A stretch of 64,000 nt of DNA from Vicinamibacterales bacterium (GTDB lineage: Bacteria > Acidobacteriota > Vicinamibacteria > Vicinamibacterales > UBA8438), in NCBI GenBank assembly GCA_965207595.1, contig CBDBMW010000013.1:503497-567496 (forward strand), given 5' to 3'. The notes beneath the pieces were generated by a model. The model searched no databases and was not told the origin of the DNA. It saw only the letters and a program-made list of their open reading frames with translations. Positions 2,549 to 26,182 of this stretch are shown one piece after another. Both the position numbers and the translations under genes were made by a program. Each line of letters begins with the position of its first letter. The first letter of the stretch is position 1.

Positions 2549-5011
2549 TCAATCGCCGCGCAATGCGAGCACCGGATCGACCTGGCTGGCGCGGCGGGCC
2601 GGAACGGCCACGGCGGCCAGCGCGACGGCAGCGAGCACCAGCGGCACGCCGACGAACGTTGCGGGGTCCGACGCCTCCACCCCGAACAGGAAGCTGGCGA
2701 GGAGGCGCGTCAACCCCGCCGCGGCCGCCACGCCGACGGCCACCCCTGCCGCGACGAGCCGCACGCCCTGCAGCACGATCATCCGCCAGACGTGGCGCCT
2801 CGCGGCGCCGAGGGCGAGCCGCACCCCGATCTCGCGCGTCCGCTGCTCCACCGAGTACGTCATCAATCCGTAGACGCCGATGGCGGCCAGGAGCAGCGCC
2901 GCGGCGCCGAACACGGTCATCAGGAGCGTGTTGAAGCGCTGTCTCGCCGTCGACCGCGAGACCACCTCGTCCATGGTCCTGACGTCCGACACCGGCAGCC
3001 CCGTGGCCAGGCGGAGCTCTTCCTGGACCGCCGCGCTGAGAGCGCGCGGGGCGGTCCGCGTCCGGACGATCCAGCCCATCGGCGCGATCTGGAGGCTGAG
3101 GGCGCTGACCGCGTCCGGCAACTGGGCATGCGGCACGTACATACGCGGTTGGGGATCGGCGTTCAATCCGCCGTCGCGCACGTCGGCCACGATGCCGACG
3201 ATCTGCCGTTCGGGCTCGTCGGCGAACTCCTGCATGACGCCCCGGCCGATGGTGATCCGGGCCGCAAGGGGATCGTCTTCGGGCCAGAAGCGGTCCGCCA
3301 TCGTCTCGTTGATGACGACCACCGGCGGGGTGCTGCTTCCGTCCCGGTCCGTGAAGACCCGCCCCCGGCGCGTGGGAATCCGGAACACCTCGAAGAAGCC
3401 GTCCGATACGGTCGTCCACCCGCCGCCGCCATGGAAGGGCCCGTCGTCGAGCGCCCGCCCCGAGATGACGAACGGCAGCCCGAACCCGCCCTCCAGGGGA
3501 ACGCAGCACGTCGCGGCGGCGTGCTCGACGCCCGGCAGCGCCCGCAGGCGGTCGACGGCTTCCCTGAGCGCCTGCCCGACACCCGTCCCGGTCGCAAACC
3601 GCGGCCCGGTCAGCGACGTCCGCATCGTAAGCACGTTAGTGGCGTCGAAGCCGGGGTCGACGCGGCTCAGAGCGACCGAAGTCCGGATGAGCAGCGCCGA
3701 GCCCACCAGCAGGACCAGCGCCAACGCGACCTCGCCGGCCACGAGCACGGACCGCGTCCGGTTCTGGCGGAACCCGGCGCCCGTACGCCCCCCGCCCTCC
3801 TTGAGGGTCGCGCCCACATCCGTGCGCGAACCCTGGAGGGCCGGGATCAGGCCGAACAGCACGCCCGTCCCGAGCGAGACCGCGAGCGCGAAGAGCATCA
3901 CGCGCCAGTCCGCCGCCACCGCCACCCCGTCGGCTCCCAGGCGGGGCAGCCCGACGGTGCTGACCGAGAGCAGGGCCCGGATGCCGGCGACGCCCAGGGC
4001 CAGGCCGAGCGCGCCGCCGACCACTGCCAACACCAGGCTCTCGGTCAGCAGTTGGCGGACAATCCGCCCCCGTCCGGCCCCGATCGCGGTGCGCAGCGCG
4101 ATCTCCCGCTTGCGCCCGAGCGCGCGCACGAGCTGCAGGTTGGCCACGTTGGCGCACGCGATCAGCAACACCAGGCCGACCGCCCCGAGCAGCACGAGGA
4201 GCAGACCGCGGGCGTTGCGGACCAGCTCCTCGCGGATCGGCACGGCGCCGAAGACCGCACCGTCCGGCAGCACCTCAGGGAATCGCTCGCGGTAGAACTC
4301 GGTCGAGCCCTCCAGCACTGCCTGCGCCTGTTCGAGGGAGACGCCCGGTCTCAGCCGACCGGCGACGATGAAGTAGTGGCCCTGATCCGTGGCGTTCGGG
4401 TCGAGCTGGAACGGCGTCCAGACGTCCGGGGTGTCGCCGAAGTCCCGGAAGTCGAAGCGGTCGCCCACGACGCCCACGACCACGTGCAGATCGCCGCTCA
4501 GCGAGAGGCCGCGGCCGATGACCTCGGGATCGCGGTCGAAGCGTCGTTCCCAGACGCGCTCGCTGATGAGCGCCACCCGCGGTCCGTTGGGCAGGTCCTC
4601 GTCCACCGCGAAGGCGCGTCCATGCACGATCGGGGCACCGAAGAGCCGGAAGTAGGCGGCGGATACCTGGGCCCAGCGGAGCTGCTCGGGAGTGTCCCCG
4701 CCGGTGTCGTTGATGCGGCCGGTGCGGAAGGCCGAGACGTCGTCGAGCACCTCGCTCTGCGTGCGCCACCAGGCGAACTTCGCCGGCGACCCGCCCTGGT
4801 TGCGACCCTCCGGCGCAACTGCCTGGAGCCAGACGATCCGATCCGGATCGGGGAACGGCGCCGGCTTCAGCAGCACGGCGTTGACGACCGAGAAGACGGC
4901 CGTCGTCGCTCCGATGCCGAGGGCCAGCGCGGCGACGGCGGCCAGCGTGAAGCCGGGACCGCGAAGAAGCGAGCGGACGGTGTGCCGGAGGTCCTGCAGG
5001 AGTGTGTCCAT
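2549..5011 (-). CDS. ADOP-family (duplicated MacB/FtsX-like) ABC transporter permease
   Basis: 820 aa. The N-terminus LLRGPGFTLAAVAALALGIGATTAVFSVVNAVLLKP and two FtsX-like 4-TM modules separated by large periplasmic regions are typical of acidobacterial duplicated orphan permeases. Confidence 0.85.
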   Translation of the reverse strand: MDTLLQDLRHTVRSLLRGPGFTLAAVAALALGIGATTAVFSVVNAVLLKPAPFPDPDRIVWLQAVAPEGRNQGGSPAKFAWWRTQSEVLDDVSAFRTGRINDTGGDTPEQLRWAQVSAAYFRLFGAPIVHGRAFAVDEDLPNGPRVALISERVWERRFDRDPEVIGRGLSLSGDLHVVVGVVGDRFDFRDFGDTPDVWTPFQLDPNATDQGHYFIVAGRLRPGVSLEQAQAVLEGSTEFYRERFPEVLPDGAVFGAVPIREELVRNARGLLLVLLGAVGLVLLIACANVANLQLVRALGRKREIALRTAIGAGRGRIVRQLLTESLVLAVVGGALGLALGVAGIRALLSVSTVGLPRLGADGVAVAADWRVMLFALAVSLGTGVLFGLIPALQGSRTDVGATLKEGGGRTGAGFRQNRTRSVLVAGEVALALVLLVGSALLIRTSVALSRVDPGFDATNVLTMRTSLTGPRFATGTGVGQALREAVDRLRALPGVEHAAATCCVPLEGGFGLPFVISGRALDDGPFHGGGGWTTVSDGFFEVFRIPTRRGRVFTDRDGSSTPPVVVINETMADRFWPEDDPLAARITIGRGVMQEFADEPERQIVGIVADVRDGGLNADPQPRMYVPHAQLPDAVSALSLQIAPMGWIVRTRTAPRALSAAVQEELRLATGLPVSDVRTMDEVVSRSTARQRFNTLLMTVFGAAALLLAAIGVYGLMTYSVEQRTREIGVRLALGAARRHVWRMIVLQGVRLVAAGVAVGVAAAAGLTRLLASFLFGVEASDPATFVGVPLVLAAVALAAVAVPARRASQVDPVLALRGD

Positions 5012-5341
5012 GACTTCGCTCGGGTTGCGAATCGTGTCTGGCGGAGGTGGTTCCGCCCCACCTCGGGCTGGGGGGCTGCGGCGCTGCCGTACGCGATAGG
5101 ACGGTTCCGCTGCGCTCCGGGTTCTCGCAGCCTGCGCGCAGGGCGCGGAACGGCAACGGCGAGTGGCTGGTCCCGAAGGAACTCACGCGGCCTGCGCGGC
5201 GTGACGTGCGCTCGTCTGTCCCGTTTCCCGTCCCGGTGGCGGGGCGACTGCGAATCCTGCCGCGACCGAAGCGGCGCCGGCCCGCACCGCTGATGCCGCG
5301 GCCCGCAGGCGCAGGGCGGCACACGCAAGGGCCGCAGATCG

Positions 5342-6013
5342 CTAGTCGTTCGGGTCGCCGTGCAGCGCGACGAGACGTGCGCGCTCGGCGTCGGTCAGGG
5401 GGAGGAAGCCGGTCTCGTCCGACTCGGCGGCGAGGGGCTGGCAGGGGCCGCACATCAGCGTATCCGCCAGCTCGTTGTGGAGCAGGCCCAGTGCGTGACC
5501 CAGCTCGTGGGCCACCACGTGGCGCGTCACCATCGCGTCGTTCCGGTCCGGGCCCCGGACTCGCCGGATGACGACGAGGTGGCGCGGCGGGTCCACGCGG
5601 GGGAGCGGCCAGGTGTAGGACAGGATGTCCTGGCGGGAGAGCAGGAGGACGACATCGGCGGCGAGTCGGGTGAGCTCCGGCGGCGCGTCCGGTTCCGCCT
5701 CGCCGCCCGGCAGGCGGACGGCGCGTTGCGCCACGCCGCGCGCATAGTTCTCCAGGACGCGCGCAACCGGCGAAGCCACGACGACGCGCGGCCCGCCGAG
5801 GCGGGTCGCGACGCCGAGCTCCGCCAGCCGGGCGTTCCAGAACGCGAGGGCCTCGCGCGCCGGGTCGAGCCGATCGTCATCCGCCGATGGCGCCAGCACG
5901 AGCACCGATCGCTCGGCAGCGCCGACAACGATACCGAGCAACAACAGGGCGGCGATCGTGGCGGTGATTCCAGCTACGAGCCGCACGGCACGATCTCGTG
6001 TCGGAACGCGCAC
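5342..6013 (-). CDS. Membrane-anchored metzincin-like zinc metalloprotease
   Basis: 223 aa with an N-terminal TM/signal segment (LVAGITATIAALLLLGIVVGA). It has the extended zinc motif HELGHALGLLH (HExxHxxGxxH) followed by a candidate Met-turn (DTLMCGP). Confidence 0.6.
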   Translation of the reverse strand: MRVPTRDRAVRLVAGITATIAALLLLGIVVGAAERSVLVLAPSADDDRLDPAREALAFWNARLAELGVATRLGGPRVVVASPVARVLENYARGVAQRAVRLPGGEAEPDAPPELTRLAADVVLLLSRQDILSYTWPLPRVDPPRHLVVIRRVRGPDRNDAMVTRHVVAHELGHALGLLHNELADTLMCGPCQPLAAESDETGFLPLTDAERARLVALHGDPND

Positions 6014-6047
6014 CGCCCCAGGCCCGCCCGCGCGCGTCGGAGGCGAA

Positions 6048-7151
6048 TCACGCGCGCTTCCGCCGCAGCAGGATGATCCAGTGCGGGCACTTCGCCGTGT
6101 CCGCGTACAGCCGCTCGCAGTCGTCGCAGCGGACGCACTCCGTCATGTCGATGCGCGGGCCCTGGATGGCGCCCCACTCGCACGCCTTCTCGCAGATCTT
6201 GCACGTGTTGCACTCGGACCAGCGCTTGATGCGGAAGACGGTCAGCGTCGAGAGCAGCCCGAGCGCCGCGCCGACGGGGCAGAGGAAGCGGCAGTAGAGG
6301 TTGCGGACGAAGACGGTCGCCAGGAGCAGCAACGCCAGGGCGGTCCAGAGGGCCGGGGTGCTGCGGAGCGTGAACATCCAGAACGGCTCGACGTAGCGGT
6401 AGGCGGCGATGTCGGAGGTGGCGAGGAAGTAGATCAGCGTGGCTCCGAGCAGGAAGTACTTGATGCGGGCCGCGCGGTGCTCGAGCCACGGCGGCACCTC
6501 GAGCCGGAACCGGGCGGGAACGACGCGGTCGAGCAACTGCGTCAGCGCCCCGTAGGCGCAGATCCGCCCGCAGTAGAGGCGGCCCCACAGGATCGTCGAG
6601 ACCACCGTGAACCCCGCGAACAGGTACCACGCCAGGCTGTAGCGGAAGACGGGGAGGTTGCCCGTCGCGGCGCTGTAGATGTTGACCACCGAGATGAGCT
6701 GGCTCTTGTAGAAGCCCAGGTAGGCCACCGCGGCCACGAGCGTCACGTACTTCAGCGGCACGCTCTTGCGCTGGAAGCTGACGAGGGCCAGCGCCGCGAA
6801 CGCCGCGAACGCCGCCAAGTCGGTGCCCTGATCCCGGAGCAGCGTGCCCCAGGTCTCGACCTCCTCCTCGTCCTCGAAGTCCCAGAAGTCGTCCGCCGCT
6901 GCCTCGTCGTCAGGCTGGATCGCGGCGGCGAAGCTCCACGCCGCCGTCGGTGCGGTCGGCGCTGCTGCCGGTGCGGTCGACGCGGCCATCGGTGCGGTCG
7001 GCGTCGCCGCCCCGACGGGGAACGCGACCGCGCCGGCGAGCAGCAGGGCCACGAGGCCGCGCCGCAGAACGGAGCGAACGGCGAGAGGCTCGGTCGGGCC
7101 TCCGGACGGGCCAGCCGGCGGCGAGAGCCGGTCCCGCGCGGCGCGCGTCAC
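6048..7151 (-). CDS. NapH/MauN/NosR-type polytopic membrane protein with C-terminal 2x[4Fe-4S] ferredoxin domain
   Basis: CxxxC and CxxxCP motifs lie beside TM helices (LYCGRICAYG, LYCRFLCPVG). The C-terminus carries CNTCKICEKAC and CVRCDDCE...CP clusters. The proposed GTG start at 7151 overlaps the upstream stop (GTGA). The start is uncertain; an internal ATG (MAASTAP...) is the alternative. Confidence 0.75.
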   Translation of the reverse strand: MTRAARDRLSPPAGPSGGPTEPLAVRSVLRRGLVALLLAGAVAFPVGAATPTAPMAASTAPAAAPTAPTAAWSFAAAIQPDDEAAADDFWDFEDEEEVETWGTLLRDQGTDLAAFAAFAALALVSFQRKSVPLKYVTLVAAVAYLGFYKSQLISVVNIYSAATGNLPVFRYSLAWYLFAGFTVVSTILWGRLYCGRICAYGALTQLLDRVVPARFRLEVPPWLEHRAARIKYFLLGATLIYFLATSDIAAYRYVEPFWMFTLRSTPALWTALALLLLATVFVRNLYCRFLCPVGAALGLLSTLTVFRIKRWSECNTCKICEKACEWGAIQGPRIDMTECVRCDDCERLYADTAKCPHWIILLRRKRA

Positions 7152-7711
7152 CGGGAAGCTCCGGGAGGCCTGAGGAAGGCCCGCGCGATTCGCCGGGCGC
7201 TGTTCTTCACGGCCCGGGTGGCGCTGCCCACGGTCAGGGTGGCGGTGGCCACCGCGTCCACATCGCGTCCGAGGCGGAAGCGGTCGCGAATGCTCTTCGC
7301 CTCGAACTGCGCGGCGTAGCCCGGCAGGTCGATGGAGAAATAGCCGTACGGCTCGTGGTGGGTGCCGACGACGACCCCGGTGAGCACGCCGACCGTGTCC
7401 ATCCCGACCAGGATCTGGATGGGACCGTCGTAGCCGCGCTCGAGTGGCTCGAGGTCCGTGGTCAGGAACGCGTAGCCGACGATGCGTGGCTCGTCGGACC
7501 CCGACTCGTGGGTGTAGACCTTGAAGTGCGGGGGGGAGCCCTCCTTCGGCGAGAAGCTGTCCGCGTCGGGAAAGAGGCGCGCGAGCTGCGCCCGGCGCTG
7601 CGCGTCGCGCGACTGGCCCGCCGCTAGTACCGCGGCACCCGCGGCGACGGCACCGGCCGCGACGGAGCCCGCAACTAGGATAGCCGTGAGGGTCCTGGTA
7701 TTCATCGACAT
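7148..7711 (-). CDS. FMN-binding domain protein (NosR N-terminal-like), signal/TM anchored
   Basis: This is the last 187 codons of track ORF 7148-9160. It begins MSMNTRTLTAILVAGSVAAGAVAAG, followed by GYDGPIQILVGMDTVGVLTGVVVGTHHEPYGY and DAVATATLTVGSATRAV, which resembles the FMN_bind flavinylation region (D..SGAT..S). Confidence 0.75.
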   Translation of the reverse strand: MSMNTRTLTAILVAGSVAAGAVAAGAAVLAAGQSRDAQRRAQLARLFPDADSFSPKEGSPPHFKVYTHESGSDEPRIVGYAFLTTDLEPLERGYDGPIQILVGMDTVGVLTGVVVGTHHEPYGYFSIDLPGYAAQFEAKSIRDRFRLGRDVDAVATATLTVGSATRAVKNSARRIARAFLRPPGASR

Positions 7712-8140
7712 GCCGCTGCCGGCCGCCGCTTTGCACGCGGCAGCGCTCCGCCGGAGGATTCGCTCGTGATTATCGCGGGCGGGGCTCGCCGGGTCAACGG
7801 AGCGCCGGGCGCCCGTCGGGGTCGCGAGCGCCGGGGAGCGCCTCCTGATGCCCGCCTGGCCTCCCGTCCGGGCGCCCCCTGCGCGCCTGGTCCCCCTGCG
7901 CACGCCCTTGCGGTCTGCTTGCCCGGACGCTGGCGCGGCCGCGATCGACGGCATCGACGCCGTGCCGGCACGATCGCATCGGTCGATGCGAGTGAGCCGC
8001 GTTTCGCAGGAGCCGTCGGGGCTCCGGCCGGGCCGCGGTGGGTCATAATGACCGGCAGTGGGGGCGCGGCCGGCGGCCGCTGCCGCGGCGGGCCTTCTCG
8101 GCTGGACGGCAGGGCGCGGACCGGGGTGCGGGAGTGCACG

Positions 8141-8641
8141 ATGGCGAACGAGACACGGACTCGGGCAATTGGACTCGTCGGGCTGGCGATGCTGCTGGCG
8201 GCTGCGGCGTCCGCAGTGCCGGCCGGGGGCCTCGGGGCGGTGCCGGCGGCGGCACAGAACCGGCTGGCGGGCGCGACCGCGGCCGACTGCACGTTCCCCG
8301 TGCTGGCCACCGGCACCTGGACGGAGGGGGAGGCGAGCGCCGAGACGACCACGTCGGACCTGTCGTTCCGCTTCGAGGGGATCGACACCGAGGACGCCAC
8401 CGCGGAAGCGGTGGGACCGTTCGGCGTCTCCCACATCATCACGCGGCTCAGCGGCCAGTACCTGCACTTCCTGCAGATGTTCCAGGCCGGGCCGCTCTAC
8501 ACGACGACCATCCTCAACCAGGAGGCGGGCGACGGCACGTTCCTGGCCGTCCACACCCGCCACGAGTACACGCAGATCTCGCTGCCCGGCTTCACCTCGC
8601 GCCCCGAGCAGTACTACGGGGAGTGCGAGTTGACCTGGTAG
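8141..8641 (+). CDS. Secreted hypothetical protein
   Basis: An ATG with an upstream GGGAG, then a signal peptide (RAIGLVGLAMLLAAAASAVPA). Non-repetitive composition, with Cys near both ends of the mature part. I recognise no family. Confidence 0.6.
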   Translation: MANETRTRAIGLVGLAMLLAAAASAVPAGGLGAVPAAAQNRLAGATAADCTFPVLATGTWTEGEASAETTTSDLSFRFEGIDTEDATAEAVGPFGVSHIITRLSGQYLHFLQMFQAGPLYTTTILNQEAGDGTFLAVHTRHEYTQISLPGFTSRPEQYYGECELTW

Positions 8642-8736
8642 CGGTCCGAGCCTGGCGCACCCCGCAAAGGCGGGTCGGGAATCCACCCTGGCGCAACCTG
8701 CCGTAGCGCCGGGTCTGCGGCGCCGGCTCCTGGGGC

Positions 8737-8784
8737 GGTGGGGGCTGGGGCCGAACACGGAGCCTGCGACGGGTTGGGCGGCGC
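8737..8784. repeat. Dispersed intergenic repeat, family A copy 2
   Basis: ggtgggggctggggccgaacacggagcctgcgacgggttgggcggcgc, located between convergent genes (stops at 8641 and 8784). Confidence 0.8.
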
Positions 8785-10226
8785 TAGCGCGGATCCGGGA
8801 GACGCACCAGGTCGTCGTCCCGCAGCGCGAAACGGACCACCACGTCCTCCTCGCGAGGGGGGACGAGCCCGGCGAGCCGCCAGTCGATGGGCGGAGGCTC
8901 GATCCAGACCGGCTGCCGGCGTCCCGTCCGGACCAGGACGGCGGTCTCGACCAGGGTGCCGAACGCGGCGTCGAGGTTGATCCGCCGCGCGCGGTCGTCG
9001 TCGAGGCGGATGACGCCCTCCGGCGGCAGCGTCGCGACCACGGGGGCGAGCCGGTCCAGCACCCGGGTCGACAGGCGCGCCGAGTCGACCCACTCGTCGA
9101 GCCGGGCCCAGTGGATGGGAACCGCGATGGCGAGCGCGAACGCGCCGGCCAGCACCGCACGGCAGCGGAGGGCCCGTCCGCCGCCGTCCCAGAGGGCGGC
9201 GACGAGCGCCGCGCCGGCCAGGGACGCGCCGGCGGCCGGCCCCACCGCGTAGAGGCTCGAGCGGACCGGCAGAAACACGGCGAGCGCGTACCCGCCGAGC
9301 ATCCAGACGAGTCCGAGAAACACCCAGCGACGCTGCTCCGCGGAGGGACGGGGCACGATCCACGCCGCGGCGGCCAGGAGCACGACGAACGACGCGGCCA
9401 GCGTCGCGCCCCGGTCGAGGTACGAGAGGGCGTTCAGGATGACCGGCCCCGGGCTCAGCACGAACCGGTACGCGGCGGGCGCGTCGAGCGGAGTCATCGC
9501 CCCCGCGGCCGTACGGGCGGCGAGGTAGAGAGCCAGCGACACGAACAGCGGCCAGGACGAGCGCAGCGCGCGGCCGAGGTGGAAGCGTGCCTGCGGCCCG
9601 CCCCCGGCTCCGGCTCCGGACGCGCTCGACATCCACAGCCCGCCCCAGGCGAGGAGCACGAACGGCAGGAGCACCGCGTCCTCCCGTGACAGCATGGCGA
9701 GGAGCGCCCAGCCGGCCGCCGCCCGTGGCCGGCCCACGACGAAGGACCGGGCGGCGAGGAGGGCGAACAGCGTGGCCAGCAGGGCCGTCCGCCCGCTGAT
9801 CCAGAGCAGCGACATGTCGACGCCGTGGAAGTTGAACGCCCAGAGCCCCGCGGCGAGCAGGGCGGCGCCCCGGGGCATTCCGAGCGCGAGGGCGAGGGCG
9901 CGGAGGGCGAGGGCGCCGGCGGCCAGGATGGCCAGGTTCGTGAGTCCGTACGCCAGCGGCTCGATCCCGAAGAGCCACCAGTCGGCCGCAAAGCTGAGCC
10001 GGACGACCGGCCGGTAGAAGTCGGCCGTGCTCGTGAACAGCCCCAGGAGCTCGCCCGCGCCGGTCACCTGGTTCGCGGCGATCCAGGCGAAATCGTCCTT
10101 GATGAAGCCGCGGCCGAGGCCCGGCAGATAGGTCAGCAGGAAGACGGCCGTGACCTCGACCGCCGCCCGCCACTCGGGCCACACGCGGTCCTCTACCGCC
10201 TTCATCGCGAGCTGGGTCCAGGACAT
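8784..10226 (-). CDS. GT-C-fold membrane protein related to PMT/TMTC-type (PMT_2/DUF1736-like) glycosyltransferases, without TPR tail
   Basis: 480 aa from MSWTQLAMKAV and polytopic. GFIKDDFAWIAANQV, FYRPVVRLSFAADWWLFG, GYG(L)TN and FNFHGVDMSLLWISGRTALLATLF match the conserved N-terminal loop and helix pattern of these families. Confidence 0.55.
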   Translation of the reverse strand: MSWTQLAMKAVEDRVWPEWRAAVEVTAVFLLTYLPGLGRGFIKDDFAWIAANQVTGAGELLGLFTSTADFYRPVVRLSFAADWWLFGIEPLAYGLTNLAILAAGALALRALALALGMPRGAALLAAGLWAFNFHGVDMSLLWISGRTALLATLFALLAARSFVVGRPRAAAGWALLAMLSREDAVLLPFVLLAWGGLWMSSASGAGAGGGPQARFHLGRALRSSWPLFVSLALYLAARTAAGAMTPLDAPAAYRFVLSPGPVILNALSYLDRGATLAASFVVLLAAAAWIVPRPSAEQRRWVFLGLVWMLGGYALAVFLPVRSSLYAVGPAAGASLAGAALVAALWDGGGRALRCRAVLAGAFALAIAVPIHWARLDEWVDSARLSTRVLDRLAPVVATLPPEGVIRLDDDRARRINLDAAFGTLVETAVLVRTGRRQPVWIEPPPIDWRLAGLVPPREEDVVVRFALRDDDLVRLPDPR

Positions 10227-10483: not shown

Positions 10484-11824
10484 CTATACCTCGGACAAGC
10501 GGCCCGTGCTGTCTCCGATCCGCTCCCGGTGGACGTCCACCTTGTCGAGGATCGACAGCAGCAGGTTCGTCATCGGCGTGCCGTCCTCGGCAACCACGTG
10601 ACGGCCGCACTGCGTCCGCCCGCCCCCGCCGCCGGCGACCAGGACCGGGAGACGCGTGTGCGTGTGGAGGTTGCCGTTGCTGATGCAGCCGCCGTAGAGC
10701 AGCGTGGCGTGGTCGAGCAGGGTGCCGTCGCCGTCGGGCGTCGACCGCAGCTTGTCCAGGAAGTAGCTGAACAGGCTGACGTGGTACGTGTTGATCTTCG
10801 CGTGCTTCGCCACCTTGTCCGGCGCGTTGCCGTGGTGCGAGATGGCGTGGTGCGGGTCGGGCACGCCGATGTGGCTGTAGGTGCGCGTCGACGCCTCGCG
10901 GGCGAGCATGAACGTGCTGATGCGCGTGATGTCGGCCTGGAACGCGAGCGCCTGCAGGTCGTACATCAGCTTCACGTGGTCGTCGTAGAGCTCCGGGACG
11001 CCGATCGGCATCTCGGGCAGCTCGATGTGCTGGCCGGCCCGCGCTTCCACCTTCCGGACCCGCTGCTCGACGTCGCGGACGCTGTCGAGATACTCGGTGA
11101 CGCGCGCCGTGTCGGCCGCGCCGAGGCGCTTCCGCAGCCGTCCCACCTCGCCGACGATGGCGTCGAGGATGCTCCGGTCCTGGCTGAGCTGCCGCCGCCG
11201 CTCCTCGGCCCCGAGCCCCTCGCCGAACAGGCGCTCGAAGATGACGCGCGGGTCGGTCTGCATCGGGAGCGGCGTCGTCGGCGTGCGCCAGGAGAGCGTG
11301 TTGACGTAGCTGCAGGAGTAGCCGATGTCGCAGCCGCCCACGGCGCTGAAGTCCTCGGCCGCGACCTCGAGCGACGGGAGCTGCGTGTCGCGGCCGAGCT
11401 CGTCGGCCGCGAGCTGGTCGATCGTCTTCGCGCCGCGGACGTCCGCGCCCTCCGTCCGCTTGGGGTGCACCCCGGTCAGCCAGACCGCGCTCGCCCGCGC
11501 GTGGTCGCCGGAGCCCTCGCCCTCGGCTGCCTCCGACGGGCGGGAGTCGAGGCCGGAGACGACGACCAGCCGGTCGCGATGGCGCTCGAGGGGGGCCAGG
11601 ATCGCCGGGAAGTCGAAGTCCGTTCCCTCGGCGGCCGGCGTCCACTGCTCCATGATGGCGCCGTTCGGGATGTAGGAGAACGCGAGGCGGCGAACCGGGG
11701 CGGCCGCCGTGCGGGACATCGCCGAGAGCGCCGGGACCATCGCGTCCAGCAGCGGCAACGCGACCGTCGCGCCGACACCGCGCAGGAACGTCCGCCGAGG
11801 CAACGCCATCTTCGTGATGATCAT
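10484..11824 (-). CDS. DUF1552 (HXXSHH) family protein with Tat signal, copy 1
   Basis: 446 aa. It has a twin-arginine signal (LPRRTFLRGVGATVALPLL), the family-defining HHAISHH motif, and the C-terminal ERIGDSTGRLSEV. Confidence 0.85.
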   Translation of the reverse strand: MIITKMALPRRTFLRGVGATVALPLLDAMVPALSAMSRTAAAPVRRLAFSYIPNGAIMEQWTPAAEGTDFDFPAILAPLERHRDRLVVVSGLDSRPSEAAEGEGSGDHARASAVWLTGVHPKRTEGADVRGAKTIDQLAADELGRDTQLPSLEVAAEDFSAVGGCDIGYSCSYVNTLSWRTPTTPLPMQTDPRVIFERLFGEGLGAEERRRQLSQDRSILDAIVGEVGRLRKRLGAADTARVTEYLDSVRDVEQRVRKVEARAGQHIELPEMPIGVPELYDDHVKLMYDLQALAFQADITRISTFMLAREASTRTYSHIGVPDPHHAISHHGNAPDKVAKHAKINTYHVSLFSYFLDKLRSTPDGDGTLLDHATLLYGGCISNGNLHTHTRLPVLVAGGGGGRTQCGRHVVAEDGTPMTNLLLSILDKVDVHRERIGDSTGRLSEV

Positions 11825-11864
11825 CTGTGCAGTCTCCTCCGGTCACCGACGGGGTGATGGGCGC

Positions 11865-14414
11865 TTACTGCCCGGCCACCACAACCGTGGCCGGCGCGTC
11901 CGGCGCCGGCCGCTTCTGCTTCATCCGGAACACGTCGCTCGTGACGACGGCGTCGACGAGGGCCGAGAACCGGTAGTCCTCGGCGGCCGCGGCGCGCACG
12001 ATGCGGCGGACAGCCGGTGCGTCGTAATACTCCATGCCGCGGCCGGCCGCGTAGGTCAGCAGCTTCCGCGTGAACGTCTCGACGAACGACTCGGGCCGCC
12101 GCAGGATGGCCTCCCGGAGCTCGCTCGGCCCCTCGAACGCCGTGCCGTCCGGCAGCACGTCCGACGCGTCGATCGGCTCGCCGCCGCTGCTGCTGCGCCA
12201 GCGGCCGATGGCGTCGAAGTTCTCGAGGCCGAAGCCGTAGGGGTCCATCTGCGCGTGGCAGGCGGCGCAGGCCGGGTTCGCCCGGTGCTGCTCCAGGCGC
12301 GCCCGGATGGAGAGGCCCTCGGCGCTCCCGCTGTCCTCGAGGTCCGGCACGTCCGGCGGCGGCGGGGGAGGCGGCGACCCGAGGAGGTTCTCGAGAATCC
12401 ACTTGCCCCGCAGCACGGGCGACGTGCGGGTGGCGTACGACGTGACCGTCAGCAGGCTGCCGTGGCCCAGGATGCCGCGGCGCGCGTCGTCGGTCACGGC
12501 CACGCGGCGGAAGCGGTCGCCGTAGATGCCGGGAATGCCGTAGTGGCGCGCCAGGCGCTCGTTGAGGAACGTGTAGTCGGCGGTCAGCAGCTCGAGGATG
12601 CTGCGGTCCTCGGCCATCACGCTCCCGAAGAAGAGCTCGGTCTCCCGCTGCAGGGCGCGGCGCAGGTTGTCGTCGAAGTCGGGGAACGTGGGCGGGTCCG
12701 GATGGGTGTTGGCGAGGTTGCGCAGGTAGAGCCACTGGCCGGCGAAGTTCTCGACCAGGGCCGACGCGCGCGGGTCGGCGAGCATGCGCCGCACCTGCCG
12801 CCGCAGCTCGTCCGGCGCGCCGAGCTCGCCGCGCTCGGCCACCGCGAGCAGCTCGTCGTCCGGGATGCTGCTCCAGAGGAAGAACGACAGCCGCGAGGCG
12901 AGGTCGAGGTCCGACACCGGGTAGACGGCACCGGCTGCCAGGTCGCTGGGTTCGGTCTCCAGCCGGAAGATGAACTGCGGGCTCGCGAGCAGGAAGCGCA
13001 GGGCGAGCTCGATGCCGGACTCGAAGCCGCCGTCGCGGCTTCCCTGCTCGTAGAACGCGAGGAGGCGGTCGAGCTCCGGCGCCTCGAGCGGGCGGCGGTA
13101 GGCTTGCCGGCCCAGACGCGACAGGATCGAGCGGGCGCATGCTGCGGCGTCGCCGGGGGCGGCATCGCCCGGTGCGGCGGCGTCGGGCGCAGCATCGTTC
13201 AACGGCATCTCCGGGCGGCAGGTGAAGATGCGCTGCCGGCTCGGGGTGTCGTCGGGGCGCCGCGGGTCGAAGGGGCCGGCGATGAGCACGCTGTCGACGT
13301 CGGGCAGGCCCCGCCGGCTGTTGGACGCGACGTAGCTCCGCAGGAACGGCTTCCGGGTCTCCTCGGAGAGTGCGGCCGGCTTGCCGACGAAGGCGGCGAC
13401 GATCTCGTGGCGTCCGGCCGGGATCGGCAGCCGCACCCGCATCCCCTCGTCCGCCGTGAAGGCCCGGCTGACGGTCTGGCCCGGGTTCTGCTCGTTCACC
13501 ACGAGAGCCGTGTACGCGTCCTCGCTGCCGATGGGGAACAGCCCGACGCGCTCGCCGTCGAGGGTCAGCTCCAGGTGGTGTTCCTCGCCGATGCCGCGAA
13601 TGGTGCCGACGGCGGTCCGGCGCAGCCGCACGCGGATCTCGTACTCGGCGTCGACCGGGAAGTGCTCCGCGACGCGGATGCCGCCGCGGGTGCCGAGCGG
13701 CAACTCGCGCAGGTGGTAGTCCTGCGTGAGGTCCTCGGGCGTCTTGTAGGTCGTCGTAACGGTCGGGATGACGGGGCTCCCGACCGCGAGACGGCTGATC
13801 TTGCGCGCCGTCGTGACGTAGCTCTCGAGCAGCAGGGGCGATACGCCCAGAGCATCGGCGATGTTGTCGAAGCCGAACGTCGAGTCGTCCGCCGGCAGCG
13901 CGCTCACGTCCGCGTCCAGCGCCAGCAGGTCGCGGACGGCGTTGCGGTACTCGGCGCGGTTCATCCGGTGGAGCTGCGGCCGGCCGGGGTTCGGCGCCGC
14001 CTCGGCCGCCCGGTCGAGCGAGGTCTCCAGCCACGAGGCGAACGCCCGGTAGGAGTCGTCGTCGGGGCGCGGGCGCCGGGGGGGCGGCATCGTCCGGCTG
14101 CGAAGCTTCTGGACCACCTTCTCCCAGAGCTCCGCGTCGGCGGCGACGTGGGCCTCGCTGACCTCCACGTCGTCGAGCGACAACCCCGCCGTCAGCAGCC
14201 GGCCGTTGTGGCAGGTGACGCAGTAGCGACCGATGAGCGCGCCGTACTCGGCGGCCTCGGCCGACGCGGCGGATTCGATCGACGTGGTGGGCGCCACGCC
14301 GGTCGCGGCAGCCGCGGCGACGCCGGTCACCTGCCCGATGGCGACGCCCGAGAGCAGGCCGCTGGCCGCCATTGCCAGCACGAGAATGAGCCCGGCGTGC
14401 CGTCTGGTCTTCAT
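11865..14414 (-). CDS. DUF1592/DUF1585/DUF1587/DUF1588/DUF1595 (PSD/PSCyt) family protein with CxxCH motif, copy 1
   Basis: 849 aa from MKTRRHAGLILVLAMAASG (signal peptide). Motifs: YCVTCHNGRLLTAGLSLDD, MPPPRRPRP, HRMNRAEYRNAVRDLL, FLWSSIPDDELL and CAACHAQMDPYGFGLENFDAIGRWR. The stop lies 40 nt upstream of the DUF1552 start. Confidence 0.85.
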   Translation of the reverse strand: MKTRRHAGLILVLAMAASGLLSGVAIGQVTGVAAAAATGVAPTTSIESAASAEAAEYGALIGRYCVTCHNGRLLTAGLSLDDVEVSEAHVAADAELWEKVVQKLRSRTMPPPRRPRPDDDSYRAFASWLETSLDRAAEAAPNPGRPQLHRMNRAEYRNAVRDLLALDADVSALPADDSTFGFDNIADALGVSPLLLESYVTTARKISRLAVGSPVIPTVTTTYKTPEDLTQDYHLRELPLGTRGGIRVAEHFPVDAEYEIRVRLRRTAVGTIRGIGEEHHLELTLDGERVGLFPIGSEDAYTALVVNEQNPGQTVSRAFTADEGMRVRLPIPAGRHEIVAAFVGKPAALSEETRKPFLRSYVASNSRRGLPDVDSVLIAGPFDPRRPDDTPSRQRIFTCRPEMPLNDAAPDAAAPGDAAPGDAAACARSILSRLGRQAYRRPLEAPELDRLLAFYEQGSRDGGFESGIELALRFLLASPQFIFRLETEPSDLAAGAVYPVSDLDLASRLSFFLWSSIPDDELLAVAERGELGAPDELRRQVRRMLADPRASALVENFAGQWLYLRNLANTHPDPPTFPDFDDNLRRALQRETELFFGSVMAEDRSILELLTADYTFLNERLARHYGIPGIYGDRFRRVAVTDDARRGILGHGSLLTVTSYATRTSPVLRGKWILENLLGSPPPPPPPDVPDLEDSGSAEGLSIRARLEQHRANPACAACHAQMDPYGFGLENFDAIGRWRSSSGGEPIDASDVLPDGTAFEGPSELREAILRRPESFVETFTRKLLTYAAGRGMEYYDAPAVRRIVRAAAAEDYRFSALVDAVVTSDVFRMKQKRPAPDAPATVVVAGQ

Positions 14415-14484
14415 GCGAAAAGCCCCCGTAGTTCCGCCGTCCGTTGCTGCCCGATCGACCGTCCGCGGCTGCGGGCGCAGACTC

Positions 14485-16026
14485 CTAGCGCTGGTCGGCC
14501 GGCACGGTGCGGCCATCCGGCGTCGCCACGGCACCGAGGCTGCGGAGCAGCTCGGCGGCGCTGTCGCGCCGGATGACGCTGGCGATCTGGTTGAAGCCCT
14601 GCTCCGCGAGGTCCAGCGCACTCCGGTCCAGCTCGTCCTCGAAGTCGGTGCGCGCGCCCGCCCCGACGAGATGTCCGATGATCGTGTTGGCGGCCCGGTA
14701 GACGGCGCCGTGGAGCGCCGTCTGTCCGTTGGCGTTGCTCGCGTTCACGTCGACGCCCGCGGCCAGCGCCAGCTTGACGGCTTCGAGCGCGTCCTTCTCG
14801 GCGCGGAAGCGCCGCGAGCCCTCGATATGGCCGACCCCGGACGCCATCATGACCGCCGTGTTGTTGGCATAGGTCGCCAGCCGCGGATCGGCGCCGAGCG
14901 CAGCCAGCTCGCGCATCGCCTCGACGTCGGCGCCCTGCGCGGCCAGGATGTACGGCGTCGCCCCGCCCAGGTTGACGCCGTTGTCCATGTACGGCCGCCC
15001 GGCGCTGAAGATGCCCTCGTCGGTCCACCGTTCGTGGCGTATCGGGGTCGGCTCGGTCCGCGCGTTGGGGTCGGCCCCGCGGGCGACGAGCATCCGCATC
15101 AGCTCCAGGCTGTCGAGCTGCGTCGGGTCGACGCCGTAGGAGTCGACGAACTGGTTGGCCAGATGGCGCTGGGGCGAGCGGCGCTGCACCAGGTTGTGGA
15201 GGATGCCGTTCCCCTGCGCGTCGCGCGCGTCGGGGTCGGCACCGGCCTCCAGCAGCACGGCGGCCATCGTGTAGTGGCCGTTCGTCACCGCCATGCTCAG
15301 CAGGCTCGGGCCGGGGACGGCGGGCTGCGCGGCTCTGCGCGCACCCGGCAGATGCACGTTCACGTCGGCGCCGGCGGCGATCAGCAGCCGCGCCGCGTCG
15401 TGCGCGTCCTGCCGCACCGCGAACATGAGCGCGTTGAAGCCGCCCGTCGACGGCGTGTCGACGGCGGCACCGTTCTCGAGCAGCACGTTCAGGATCGGCG
15501 CGTGATTCTCCGCCGCGGCCCACATGAGCGAGGTCTGGCCCCGCCACGTGTCCGCTGCGTCCACGCTCGCGCCGTAGCGCAGCAGGGCCCGCAACGCGGC
15601 GACGCGGCCGGTCCGCGCGCAGCCGAGGATCGGCGGCTCTCCGTTCGGCGCCAGGCTCGGATCCGCGCCCGCTTCGAGCAACCCCTCGAGCAGGGCCGGG
15701 TTGGCGTTGGTGCACGCAAGGGCGAGGGGCGTCGCGCCGTTCCGGTTCTCGGCGTTGGGGTCGGCGCCCGCGTCCAGCAGCAGGCTCGCCAGCTCCGCGT
15801 CGTCGGCATACGCCGCCCAGTGGAGCGCCGTGGTGCCGTCGACCCCGGGGGAATCGACGTCCACGTCGCCCGCGGCGAGCAGGCCCGCCACTCCCGCCCG
15901 ATCCCCGGAGCGCGCCAGCTCCGGCAGGCGCGCGTCGGGCTCCGCGGCCGAGAGCACGCCCCCGGCCATGAGAAACATGAGGAAGAGGAGGAGGATCGGC
16001 GACGCGAGCCCTTGTCGGTGCTGCAT
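14485..16026 (-). CDS. Secreted ankyrin-repeat protein, copy 1
   Basis: 513 aa from MQHRQGLASPILLLFLMFLMAGGVLSA (signal peptide), with about 10 or more ankyrin repeats (DGTTALHWAAYADDAELASLLLDAGADPN ...). It lies 70 nt upstream of the DUF1592 gene on the same strand. Confidence 0.85.
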   Translation of the reverse strand: MQHRQGLASPILLLFLMFLMAGGVLSAAEPDARLPELARSGDRAGVAGLLAAGDVDVDSPGVDGTTALHWAAYADDAELASLLLDAGADPNAENRNGATPLALACTNANPALLEGLLEAGADPSLAPNGEPPILGCARTGRVAALRALLRYGASVDAADTWRGQTSLMWAAAENHAPILNVLLENGAAVDTPSTGGFNALMFAVRQDAHDAARLLIAAGADVNVHLPGARRAAQPAVPGPSLLSMAVTNGHYTMAAVLLEAGADPDARDAQGNGILHNLVQRRSPQRHLANQFVDSYGVDPTQLDSLELMRMLVARGADPNARTEPTPIRHERWTDEGIFSAGRPYMDNGVNLGGATPYILAAQGADVEAMRELAALGADPRLATYANNTAVMMASGVGHIEGSRRFRAEKDALEAVKLALAAGVDVNASNANGQTALHGAVYRAANTIIGHLVGAGARTDFEDELDRSALDLAEQGFNQIASVIRRDSAAELLRSLGAVATPDGRTVPADQR

Positions 16027-16326: not shown

Positions 16327-16674
16327 ATGGCAAATAGAGACCCTTCCAGGACGGAGGTCCTGCGCGGCACGCTCGACCTGATGGTGCTGCAGGCTCTGGT
16401 CGTGCTCGGGCCGTCGCACGGCTACGCGATCGCGGGCCGGCTCGAGCAGGTGTCCGACGGCGCCCTCGTCCTCAACATGGGCACCCTCTATCCCGGCCTG
16501 ATGCGGCTGGAGCAGCGCGGGCTCATCAGCGCGGAGTGGGGCACGACGGGGAACAACCGCCGCGCCCGGTTCTACGCCGTCACTGCGGCCGGCCGGAGCC
16601 ATCTGGCGGCGGAGAAGCGCAGCCTGGACCGCATGGTGTCGATCATCGACGCCCTGTTCGAGGAGCCGGCGTGA
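16327..16674 (+). CDS. PadR-family transcriptional regulator
   Basis: 115 aa. LRGTLDLMVLQAL..GPSHGYAI....EQVSDGALVLNMGTLYPGLMRLEQRGLISAEWG......RARFYAVT is the typical PadR winged-helix pattern. It sits directly upstream of the ADOP permeases, a known pairing. Confidence 0.9.
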   Translation: MANRDPSRTEVLRGTLDLMVLQALVVLGPSHGYAIAGRLEQVSDGALVLNMGTLYPGLMRLEQRGLISAEWGTTGNNRRARFYAVTAAGRSHLAAEKRSLDRMVSIIDALFEEPA

Positions 16675-16787: not shown

Positions 16788-19454
16788 ATGGCTGTCCTGC
16801 GCGAGTTCTGGCGTCGTTTCCGGGGCGTGCTCCGGCGCAACGCAGCCGATCACGATCTGGAGCGCGAGTTGCGCTTTCATCTCGAGCTGGCCGAGGAAGA
16901 GCTCCGCCGGCAGGGCCACTCGCGGGCCGAGGCCGCGCGGCTGGCGCGCGTGCGTCTGGGCGGAGTGCCGCAGGCCCTGGAGGCGCTGCGCGACCAGCGC
17001 GGGCTGCCGTGGCTCGACGACCTCCGGTCCGATGCTCGTGTCGCCGCTCGAACGCTGCTGCGGTCCCCCGGGTTCTCGCTCACCGCTCTCCTGACCCTGG
17101 CGGTCGGCATGAGCGCGACCACCCTCGCGTTGACGGCCGTCAACGCCGTGCTGCTCAAGCCGCTCCCGGTCCGAGCCCCCGATCGGGTCGTGGGCATCAC
17201 GGCCGTCGGAGAGCTGGCGGTCCTTCGCAACGAACCGGTGGGATACGGCGACTACGCCGATCTCGCCCGTGACGTCGCCGCGTTCGAATCCGTGGTCGCC
17301 CACCGCCGCATGGGAGCGGTGGTCGGCACCGGACTGGACCGCAGGATCGCGATCGGCGAAGAGGCCTCGCCCGACTACTTCACCACGCTCGGCGTGTCGT
17401 TCCCGCTCGGTCGCCCGTTCGACGAAGGCGACCCGCCGGGTGGGGTGGTCGTTCTGGGTCACGCCGCGTGGCGCCGGCACTTCGGGGCCGATCCCCGGAT
17501 TGTCGGCCGGGAGCTGGCGATCGGCGATCGGCGGCGCACGGTCATCGGGATTGCCCCGGAGGGGTTCACCGGGCTGTTCCGCGGGGTCGCACCGGAGTTC
17601 TGGCAGCCGCTCGACGACGCCGGCGGCGAGTCGGCCGACGACCGCGGGCAACCGGAGTGGTGGGTGCACGCCCGGTTGCGGGACGGCGCGACGGTCGAGC
17701 AGGCTCGCACGCAGGTTGCCGTCCTGGCCGATGCGCTCTCCCGGCGATATCCGCAGTCGAACGCCGATCGCACCCTGGCGCTCACGCCGCTGTCGGAGGC
17801 GTCCGTTCACCCCGTCGTGTCGAGGGCCCTGGCCCGGTTCGGAGCCGCCGGCGTCCTCGCGGTCGCGCTGCTCCTGCTGCTGGTCTGCGCGGTCAACGTC
17901 GCGCACCTCGTGCTCGCCCGGGCCGTCGACGGCCAGCGCGAGGTCGCCATCCGACTGGCGGTGGGAGCCAATCGCTGGCGGATCGTTCGTCCGTTGCTCG
18001 CCGAGGGCATCCTGCTCACGGGCTTCGCGGCGGCCGGCGCGTTGCTCCTGACCGCGTGGGTCGGGCCGCTGCTCGGCGAGATCCGACTGCCGGGGGTGCC
18101 GGCCGCCATCGATCTTCACCTGGTGCCCGACTGGCGCGTCTTCGGCCTCACGGCGATCGTCGTCCTCGGGTCGACCCTGGTCTCCTCGCTCGGGCCGGCG
18201 TTGCGGATCTCGTCGGGCCTCTCCATCGTCGAGACGCTCAAGACCGACTCGCGCGCATCCGCGGCCGGCGGAGCCACGAGGTGGCGCATGCTGCTGATTG
18301 CCGGCCAGGCCACGACCGCGGTGCTGCTGCTGGTGGTCGGCGGCCTCGCGCTGCGCAGCCTTCTCACCGTGGTGCAGGTCGACCCCGGCTTCGAGACGCG
18401 CGGCGTCGCGGTCGCGAGCGTCGCCCCGGCGCTGGTCGGCCACGACCAGGACGAGGCGTCCCGCTACCTGTCGCGCGCGGCCGCCGCCGTCCGGGAGCTT
18501 CCCGACGTCGAGGCCGCGGGGTGGATTCAGCCGGTCCCCCTGTCGCTGAGCGTTCGACTCGCCCGACTGCGCCTGACCGGAGACGACAGCGCGGCAGCGC
18601 ACGATCTTCCGCTCGTCGACGCCGGGATAGCCGGTCCCGGCGCCTTCGGAGCGCTTCGGGTGCCGGTGATCGAAGGGCGCGAGTTCGACGCCGCGGACCG
18701 CTCGGGCGCGGTCGAGGTCGCGCTCGTGAACGACGCGTTCGTCCGCCGCTTCTGGCCCGACCGGCAGGCCCTCGGCCGGCGCATCGGGGTGGGCTTTCCG
18801 GAGACTCGGACCGTGGAGGTCGTGGGCGTGGTGGGCGATTTCCGGAACCGCACGCTCGGGGACGTCGCGCGACCCATGGTGTTCACGTCGATCCTGCAGG
18901 ACCCGTCGGGTTGGCAGGCCGCGGCGCTGGTCGTGCGACGGTCGCCCGCCGGTCCGCCGCGGATGGTGCATCTCGTCGACGCGCTGCGCGCGATCGATCC
19001 GGCGGTGCCCGTGTACGACGTGCAGCCGCTCACCGCGCGCATCGGCGGCGTCCTCCTGTTGCCCCGGTATGCCGCGGCGGCCTTTGGCGGGACCGGCGTT
19101 CTCGCGCTGGGACTGGTCGTGCTCGCACTGTATGGAACCGTATCGCTGTCCGTCAGGCTCCGGCTGCGCGAGCTGAGCGTGCGCATGGCGCTCGGCAGCT
19201 CCCGGACGGCCATCGTGCGGCTGGTCATGCGGCAGGCCCTCGTGCCGGTCGTGGCCGGCGTCGGGCTCGGCCTGGTCGCGGCGCTGGGGGCGGCCCGTGT
19301 CCTGACCGCGCTGCTCTACGGCGTGTCACCCCACGACCCCGCCACGCTGGCGGCGGCCGCCCTCACGCTGTTGGCGACGACGACGGCGGCCGGCGCGTAT
19401 CCCGCGTGGCGCGCCACGCGCACGAACCTCATGCGCTCGCTCCAGGGCGAATGA
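16788..19454 (+). CDS. ADOP-family permease with N-terminal 'permease prefix' extension
   Basis: 888 aa. The N-terminus MAVLREFWRRFRGVLRR...LERELRFHLELAEEELRRQGHS is followed by two FtsX-like modules. Confidence 0.85.
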   Translation: MAVLREFWRRFRGVLRRNAADHDLERELRFHLELAEEELRRQGHSRAEAARLARVRLGGVPQALEALRDQRGLPWLDDLRSDARVAARTLLRSPGFSLTALLTLAVGMSATTLALTAVNAVLLKPLPVRAPDRVVGITAVGELAVLRNEPVGYGDYADLARDVAAFESVVAHRRMGAVVGTGLDRRIAIGEEASPDYFTTLGVSFPLGRPFDEGDPPGGVVVLGHAAWRRHFGADPRIVGRELAIGDRRRTVIGIAPEGFTGLFRGVAPEFWQPLDDAGGESADDRGQPEWWVHARLRDGATVEQARTQVAVLADALSRRYPQSNADRTLALTPLSEASVHPVVSRALARFGAAGVLAVALLLLLVCAVNVAHLVLARAVDGQREVAIRLAVGANRWRIVRPLLAEGILLTGFAAAGALLLTAWVGPLLGEIRLPGVPAAIDLHLVPDWRVFGLTAIVVLGSTLVSSLGPALRISSGLSIVETLKTDSRASAAGGATRWRMLLIAGQATTAVLLLVVGGLALRSLLTVVQVDPGFETRGVAVASVAPALVGHDQDEASRYLSRAAAAVRELPDVEAAGWIQPVPLSLSVRLARLRLTGDDSAAAHDLPLVDAGIAGPGAFGALRVPVIEGREFDAADRSGAVEVALVNDAFVRRFWPDRQALGRRIGVGFPETRTVEVVGVVGDFRNRTLGDVARPMVFTSILQDPSGWQAAALVVRRSPAGPPRMVHLVDALRAIDPAVPVYDVQPLTARIGGVLLLPRYAAAAFGGTGVLALGLVVLALYGTVSLSVRLRLRELSVRMALGSSRTAIVRLVMRQALVPVVAGVGLGLVAALGAARVLTALLYGVSPHDPATLAAAALTLLATTTAAGAYPAWRATRTNLMRSLQGE

Positions 19455-26013: not shown

Positions 26014-26182
26014 CGAGAGCCTCCGTTCTTCCGCCGTCCCACGTCTCTTCCGCCGACCCACGTCGCCCGCTCCGCCCGGGCTTCTTCGCGGGCGCGGTCT
26101 TCGACGACCTCGCGCCGAGCCCCAGGTTCCCATCGCGTCAACCGACAGCCGCCGGAACGTGCACGGTGCGGACCTGCATCGC

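Follow-up and report, generated by a model that had tools for sequence, protein, structure and literature searches.

A predicted two-subunit electron conduit of the NosR type with a glycine-less flavinylation motif and a conserved beta-barrel neighbour in Vicinamibacterales

A 64,000-nucleotide stretch of a Vicinamibacterales genome (assembly GCA_965207595.1, contig CBDBMW010000013.1, positions 503,497 to 567,496; hereafter the window) encodes on its minus strand a flavin mononucleotide (FMN)-binding protein followed by a membrane iron–sulfur protein related to NapH and to the C-terminal part of NosR. We consider it likely that the two genes make up a single operon with coupled translation and encode a minimal transmembrane electron conduit of the NosR type, built from two subunits. 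Comparison of related genomes indicates that the module is ancestral and near-universal in Vicinamibacterales, an abundant and poorly characterized group of soil Acidobacteriota. Essentially all Vicinamibacterales keep it, at 65–90% protein identity, and it is therefore likely to matter for the redox physiology of their envelope. New here are a conserved, unannotated beta-barrel partner encoded next to the pair and a clade-wide non-canonical acceptor motif in the FMN-binding protein; a new class of mechanism is not proposed.

The gene of the FMN-binding subunit (187 aa; 7148–7711, minus strand) runs from an ATG at 7711–7709 to a TGA at 7150–7148, and that of the NapH-like subunit (367 aa; 6048–7151, minus strand) opens with a GTG at 7151–7149. 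The start and stop codons overlap by 4 nt in a GTGA (7148–7151, minus strand; tcac on the plus strand), an arrangement that implies translational coupling. The G+C content of the window is 73% and long spurious open reading frames (ORFs) are plentiful; genes were called with a codon-usage score and then checked by homology. NCBI/ENA contains an identical protein of 367 aa, annotated with the same start. We compared the junction across 81 loci, namely the best 80 of 471 matching stretches from a scan of species-representative genomes, all of them from Vicinamibacteria or other Acidobacteriota, together with locus L001. In every one of the 81, tblastn places a separate FMN_bind gene immediately before the NapH-like gene, always in a different frame. 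The junction is a 4-nt overlap of the RTGA type (GTGA or ATGA) in 62 loci, TGATG or TAATG in 15 and a short gap in the remaining 4, such that coupled stop and start codons are kept in 77/81. Searching 5.8 billion proteins with the membrane protein returned more than 4386 homologues, and our statements about them rest on the best 120. These are 292–425 aa long and carry PF12801 and PF27538; none is fused to FMN_bind (0/120). Predicted N-termini of homologues read MTR or MIR, comparable to VTR in the window.

A sequencing or assembly frameshift that had split an ordinary single NosR/NirI gene is difficult to reconcile with a two-frame layout in 81 of 81 genomes and a coupled junction in 77, with the lack of fusions among the best 120 homologues or with the conserved N-termini. 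The idea draws on the best scores of both halves, which fall on the NosR model (positions 9–159 for the N-terminal part and 424–676 for the C-terminal part), and on the NapH-like frame, which continues without a stop upstream to 7736; at 73% G+C open frames of this kind are frequent, and the middle of the NosR model (160–424) is without counterpart here. Predicted topology speaks for two proteins as well. Five membrane helices appear to follow a periplasmic N-terminus, and only two separate proteins would give a cytoplasmic iron–sulfur domain: in a read-through fusion, one extra membrane-spanning segment would leave this domain on the opposite, wrong side. An independent assembly of a near-identical genome (L004; 99% identity in an ADOP permease and 97% in the downstream metzincin), a check that the preliminary description of this locus had called for, carries an identical GTGA junction. 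On the strength of the survey of 81 loci we reject the frameshift reading, whose probability we regard as negligible; the comparison marks the two-gene split as real and ancestral, not a sequencing error.

The FMN-binding subunit matches Pfam FMN_bind (PF04205) with an E-value of 3.3e-9 (37.7 bits, cut-off 22). Hydropathy places a single N-terminal hydrophobic helix at residues 11–29, which is followed by an FMN_bind domain of the type found in RnfG and in the N-terminal part of NosR. The best-scoring model is NCBIfam NosR (positions 9–159, 52.9 bits), and the RnfG models reach 24–36 bits, under every cut-off (102–230). Among structures in the PDB the sequence relatives are RnfG chains only (7zc6_G, E-value 2.7e-4), and AVATAT of the subunit aligns to AITGAT of this chain. 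These residues belong to a variant of the ApbE-type flavinylation motif, DAVATAT (residues 152–158; 7238–7258, minus strand), in which Thr158 (codon 7238–7240) is the predicted acceptor. Across 80 relatives the motif reads D-[ASG]-[VI]-[SA]-[TRQ]-A-T-[ILMV]-[TS], and the A-T pair is invariant. An ApbE gene lies within 6 kb of the pair in five of the 81 loci (L065, L067, L069, L079 and L080), whereas a gene present roughly once per 5 Mb genome would be expected there in about 0.2 loci; ApbE is also adjacent in L083, L107 and L109. The ApbE-linked members carry DAVSRAT (L065, L067 and L069), AAVSRAT (L079 and L080) or DAVSTAT (L083).

The NapH-like subunit matches Pfam Fer4_5/PF12801 with an E-value of 1.7e-14. 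Its best-scoring model is likewise NCBIfam NosR (positions 424–676, 118.7 bits, cut-off 1000), followed at a distance by the NapH models TIGR02163 and NF007013 (51.7 and 51.4 bits; cut-offs 213 and 234). A weak Pfam Fer4 match at residues 311–330 scores 19.7 bits, slightly under the cut-off of 21.1, and precomputed annotation assigns PF27538 ('NosR') to the identical protein's database record and also to the homologues. Searching PDB sequences with a profile of the NapH-like protein gave no match. All 12 cysteines of the protein are invariant in the homologue alignment. Four of them (C194, C198, C287 and C291) form two membrane-embedded CxxxC motifs (6276–6572, minus strand), LYCGRICA at 6558–6572 and LYCRFLCP at 6276–6293. 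The other eight (C314, C317, C320, C324, C339, C342, C345 and C355) lie in the C-terminal motifs CNTCKICEKAC and CVRCDDC...KCP, predicted to hold two [4Fe-4S]-type clusters (6084–6212, minus strand). Just ahead of the membrane helix that opens the conserved core lies an acidic motif, W-D-F-EDEEE-V-E-T-W (6849–6884, minus strand), whose residues D88, W90, F92, E99, T100 and W101 are invariant in the same alignment. The segment ahead of it (6885–7151, minus strand) consists of a signal-like helix and a linker rich in Ala, Pro and Thr, and varies within the NapH-like family: it is absent in L037, L053, L069 and L083, and some relatives begin right at the acidic motif.

By its domain composition the pair belongs to an already described class, the two-gene NapH-like flavinylation systems. 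Méheust et al. 2021 (PMC8238504) define a NapH-like system as a PF12801 (or K19339) membrane protein clustered with FMN_bind or ApbE, count 2465 such clusters, of which 1926 are fused and 539 have a separate FMN-binding gene, and state that the reactions catalysed by the majority of the clusters are unknown. The matches to PF12801 (1.7e-14) and PF04205 (3.3e-9) in adjacent, overlapping genes place our pair within this operational definition. Those systems share with ours a PF12801 iron–sulfur protein beside an FMN_bind protein, secreted or anchored in those systems and with a putative anchor in ours, relatives linked to ApbE and the lack of a defined terminal enzyme. The module described here differs from them in the clade-wide non-canonical acceptor motif [S/A]-[T/R/Q]-A-T, the acidic N-terminal motif and the unannotated beta-barrel partner. 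We found no mention of the glycine-less motif, the acidic motif or the barrel partner in the accessible parts of Méheust et al. 2021 or in literature searches, and the searches returned no description of this subfamily; the portion of their supplementary text available to us holds no entries for Acidobacteria or Vicinamibacter.

Likeness to the individual families is partial in each case. With NosR and NirI the pair shares an FMN_bind domain, predicted to be periplasmic here, CxxxC(P) membrane motifs, a C-terminal two-cluster ferredoxin-like domain and PF27538. NosR, however, is a single chain of ~700 aa and includes a further periplasmic stretch of ~265 residues (positions 160–424) that has no counterpart here; the module consists of two genes in 81/81 loci, and its scores of 52.9 and 118.7 bits lie far under the 1000-bit cut-off of the NosR equivalog NF046105. 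The two CxxxCP-type and two 4Fe-4S motifs of NosR are present, except that one CxxxCP reads CxxxCA. NapH, PceC and RdhC have in common with the NapH-like subunit a membrane iron–sulfur core, paired CxxxCP-type motifs and cytoplasmic 4Fe-4S motifs, and PceC and RdhC also carry a flavinylated FMN_bind domain, fused in PceC; the score against NapH is 51 bits where the cut-offs are 213–234, and no napG, napA or rdhA is found nearby. The FMN-binding subunit resembles RnfG and NqrC in that one N-terminal anchor helix precedes the FMN_bind domain, predicted to be periplasmic here, and its acceptor threonine aligns with that of RnfG 7zc6_G. Against RnfG models, in turn, the subunit scores 24–36 bits where 102–230 are required (24.5 versus 102 for RnfG TIGR01947), the motif glycine is absent and no rnf or nqr genes lie nearby. 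Judged by these comparisons, the pair is a minimal two-subunit conduit of the NosR type that stands outside the NosR, NapH and RnfG families proper.

The preliminary description, made from the window sequence alone, had recognized a split NosR-like module of an FMN-binding and a NapH-type ORF in two frames, and both the coordinates and the GTGA overlap agree with our gene calls and Pfam matches. It had also noted DAVATAT in place of the usual D..SGAT, which we locate at residues 152–158, and had asked whether the acceptor threonine is conserved among homologues, as it proves to be throughout the 80 relatives. Its suggestion of an orphan module, putatively extracytosolic, likewise stands: neither N2O reductase nor nitrate reductase nor ApbE is encoded in the window, as judged by Pfam scans of the 34 called genes and, for ApbE, also by tblastn over the whole window. 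No nosZDFYL or nir genes occur in the 64 kb, and NosZ, NosD and NirS are not among the gene families recurring within 6 kb on either side of the 81 loci. The split itself holds; the picture of a simple NosR cut in two does not, given the ~265 NosR residues (160–424) left unmatched.

The conserved neighbour overlooked by that description is a divergent gene on the plus strand (8141–8641), which encodes a 166-aa protein with a signal peptide and a predicted eight-stranded beta-barrel. The barrel gene adjoins the FMN_bind/NapH-like pair in 77/81 loci, and in three of the four loci without it the contig ends before the expected position. It is divergent and upstream in most loci, lies ~1.2 kb further off in L072 and L078–L081, and is found downstream of the pair in two Terriglobia genomes (L075 and L077). 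We found 1287 homologues in the collection of 5.8 billion proteins, none with a Pfam domain, and 742 clusters of the family in a library of representatives at 50% identity. Pfam searches with 38 members at E<=1 gave scattered noise only, a PDB profile search nothing meaningful, and longer members of the family have no informative fused domains. AlphaFold2 predicts with confidence an eight-stranded up-and-down barrel (predicted local distance difference test 81.6 at full length; 85.2, with a predicted template modelling score of 0.79, for the mature domain). A Foldseek comparison of two AlphaFold2 models with the PDB yields nothing at E<=1e-3; the matches above this value are generic eight-stranded barrels (PsbO, avidins, lipocalins, TbpB lobes and NHBA) with TM-scores of 0.3–0.46.

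Barrels from Vicinamibacteria display many invariant polar residues, among them GPLYTTT, HTRHEYT and GFTSRPEQYYGEC. Across the whole family Cys50, Cys162, Ala88, Gly117, Ala136, Gln157 and Gly160 are invariant, and Phe52, Trp60, Thr122, Arg140 and Pro155 nearly so. In the model Cys50 and Cys162 lie in the first and last strands, where they probably close the barrel by a disulfide. Distant barrels of 30–48% identity still cluster with genes of the module (L083, L097–L101, L103, L107, L109 and L113). FMN_bind, NapH-like, ApbE and barrel genes stand together in L083; FMN_bind is divergent from the barrel in L089, L097–L101 and L103, and ApbE in L107; and the order FMN_bind, NapH-like, barrel forms a co-directional operon in L109 and L113. 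By gene neighbourhood the barrel is strongly linked to the pair, if not in every member of the wider barrel family. The idea that the barrel itself is an ApbE substrate of the DUF2271 type was considered and rejected: it has no DUF2271 match, and its 'DATA' stretch is out of register with the ApbE motif and not conserved in distant members.

If the module works like NosR, NapH, PceC and RnfG, electrons supplied by the quinol pool or by a cytoplasmic donor would enter it through the C-terminal [4Fe-4S] sites, cross the membrane through the CxxxC-bearing core and be received by the periplasmic FMN of the first subunit, anchored like RnfG and NqrC. A periplasmic acceptor would then take the electrons from the flavin, and the barrel appears the most plausible acceptor or adaptor. 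The role of the module is most likely periplasmic electron delivery. We put forward only tentatively, as a possibility short of even chances, that the FMN subunit, the NapH-like protein and the barrel together make up a periplasmic redox system of three components not described before, characteristic of Vicinamibacterales and occurring sporadically in related lineages from soil, with the non-canonical motif [S/A]-[T/R/Q]-A-T and with the barrel, through its Cys pair and near-invariant Arg, as terminal acceptor or as adaptor to respiratory partners. Candidate partners in such a system may be a complex of the Alternative Complex III (ACIII) type, as in L109, or the DUF1552/DUF1592 cassettes, as in L091 and L117.

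Several observations weigh against a flavinylated conduit with the barrel as its partner. The canonical ApbE motif is D-x-x-[S/T]-G-A-[S/T] (PMC12052999, PMC10722498), and DAVATAT departs from it while keeping the Asp, the Ala and the acceptor Thr: in the window an Ala replaces the Ser/Thr of position 4 and a Thr the Gly of position 5. None of the 80 relatives has this Gly, and T, R or Q stands in its place. No apbE is found in the 64-kb window, either by Pfam in the 34 genes or by tblastn with queries from E. coli (ApbE/Ftp) and from Acidobacteria (three ApbE sequences). Both the topology and the direction of electron flow are drawn from analogy with NosR, NapH and RnfG. All-versus-all clustering of the ORFs of the 81 loci, together with Pfam, revealed no conserved terminal oxidoreductase beside the module; the clustering yielded only paralogous PSD/DUF1552 cassettes, an M1 peptidase, ankyrin proteins and lineage-specific genes. 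As for the barrel, no strict cofactor-binding signature extends across the whole family, and many short contigs of the wider family lack FMN_bind or NapH-like genes in the available flank; several contigs with distant barrels are too short to reveal the gene context. The motif-related observations could mean that the FMN_bind subunit is no substrate of ApbE and instead holds a non-covalent flavin, binds another ligand or has lost its cofactor, the more so as L079 and L080, with AAVSRAT, are also without the Asp, and the window sequence without a Ser/Thr at position -3. Experiments on a model substrate, as reviewed in PMC12052999, bear on this: Thr-to-Ala abolishes flavinylation, Gly-to-Ala leaves ~50% and the effects of Asp-to-Ala are minor. 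The residues that are invariant in our relatives are the acceptor-site Thr and the Ala, and ApbE is genomically linked to members with exactly these motifs (those listed above). We therefore think it unlikely that the subunit escapes ApbE. Covalent flavinylation of Thr158, presumably by an ApbE whose gene lies outside the window, is likely because of the invariant Ala-Thr, the tolerance of Gly and Asp mutants and the linkage of ApbE to glycine-less motifs, and the clade represents, by its sequences, a natural Gly-less variant of the ApbE motif. Such natural ApbE-linked substrates bear on the motif-based prediction of flavinylated proteins and on the engineering of flavin tags.

The neighbourhood raises two further alternatives about whom the conduit serves. 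The module and the barrel might work for the PSCyt/PSD (DUF1592-type cytochrome c) and DUF1552 cassettes, or for Alternative Complex III or a cytochrome oxidase. In 33/81 loci a PSD/DUF1552 cassette is found no more than 6 kb away (10484–14381 in the window), and PSD, DUF1552 and barrel genes are co-directional in L091 and L117. Genes for ActB-like, NrfD/ActC and ActD proteins directly precede FMN_bind, NapH-like and barrel in L109, and the barrel gene stands beside COX1 in L094 and, in L102, beside the gene of a pyrroloquinoline quinone dehydrogenase that carries a cytochrome c domain. The respiratory contexts hint at a respiratory role but are anecdotal, each being seen on one contig only, and no arrangement is conserved across lineages. 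The cassettes have so many paralogues (the 64 kb contain three PSD genes and two DUF1552 genes) that chance and synteny would produce a figure close to 33/81. We regard this alternative as rather improbable. The other alternative comes from the preliminary description, which had correctly placed a membrane-anchored HExxHxxGxxH protease next on the strand and had seen in it an unusual partner of the pair. This metzincin-like protein (5342–6013, minus strand) has one N-terminal hydrophobic helix and HELGHALGLLH at residues 169–179, a complete HExxHxxGxxH zinc-binding motif, and its match to Pfam Peptidase_M10 is borderline (24.1 bits, cut-off 24). A functional trio, with the protease as a redox-served or regulatory partner, would fit a co-directional gene that begins 35 nt past the stop codon of the NapH-like gene, is not separated from it by a terminator-like site, overlaps the NapH-like gene call by 1 nt in L001, and encodes an anchored protein whose catalytic domain would be on the flavin side. 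The adjacency is not conserved: the metzincin is a neighbour in just 5/81 loci (L001–L004 and L008), all close relatives with NapH-like proteins 83–91% identical, and in L008 it is displaced by ~1.2 kb. Other lineages have unrelated genes downstream (convergent DUF1552, SDR, MFS transporter and unknowns), none with HExxH. We reject the partnership, which we judge very improbable; the metzincin is probably co-transcribed with the pair in this genus and, on the comparative evidence, is a lineage-specific neighbour outside the conserved module. With the protease lead removed, a generic orphan NapH-like system becomes a defined and testable three-gene unit of FMN-binding, NapH-like and barrel proteins.

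Some of these gene contexts deserve a record of their own. In L109 (202–7364) the ActB-like iron–sulfur protein, NrfD/ActC, ActD, FMN_bind, NapH-like and barrel genes are co-directional, and ApbE follows 1.4 kb downstream; this may represent the swap of a flavin for a cytochrome in an operon of the ACIII type, seen on a single contig. L091 (482–2359) and L117 (2–2404) are metagenome contigs of lower G+C in which a barrel homologue comes directly after PSD and DUF1552 on the same strand, a second context that recurs in the barrel family.

Within the window, the 429-nt divergent intergenic region between the FMN and barrel genes holds a promoter-like site, TTGACC-17 nt-GATAAT (7769–7797, minus strand), 58 nt ahead of the start of the FMN gene. 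It is a consensus match only, the sole sigma-70-like match in 5200–8800, with one found where 0.1 is expected in shuffled sequences. An Rfam scan of 5000–9000 gave no match. Convergent with the barrel gene is a 480-aa ORF (8784–10226, minus strand) with a strong coding signal and no Pfam match, conserved in the closest relatives only (L001–L003 and L008). Cassettes of ankyrin, PSCyt/PSD and DUF1552 genes occupy 10484–16026, 23380–27622 and 36775–40565 on the minus strand, as well as 2–799 and 44631–46052 on the plus strand. Their PSD protein carries a cytochrome c domain at its N-terminus besides DUF1587/1595/1592/1588/1585 and is accompanied by DUF1552 (HXXSHH). The 64 kb contain three PSD genes, two DUF1552 genes and five ankyrin genes, an ankyrin density unusual for a bacterium. 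Three duplicated MacB/FtsX permeases of the ADOP family are also encoded, at 2549–5011 on the minus strand and at 16788–19454 and 19480–22179 on the plus strand; the latter two stand in tandem behind a PadR regulator gene (16381–16674, plus strand), an arrangement shared with L001. Two large ORFs, of 717 aa (27694–29847, minus strand) and 657 aa (32257–34230, plus strand), have good coding scores and no Pfam match.

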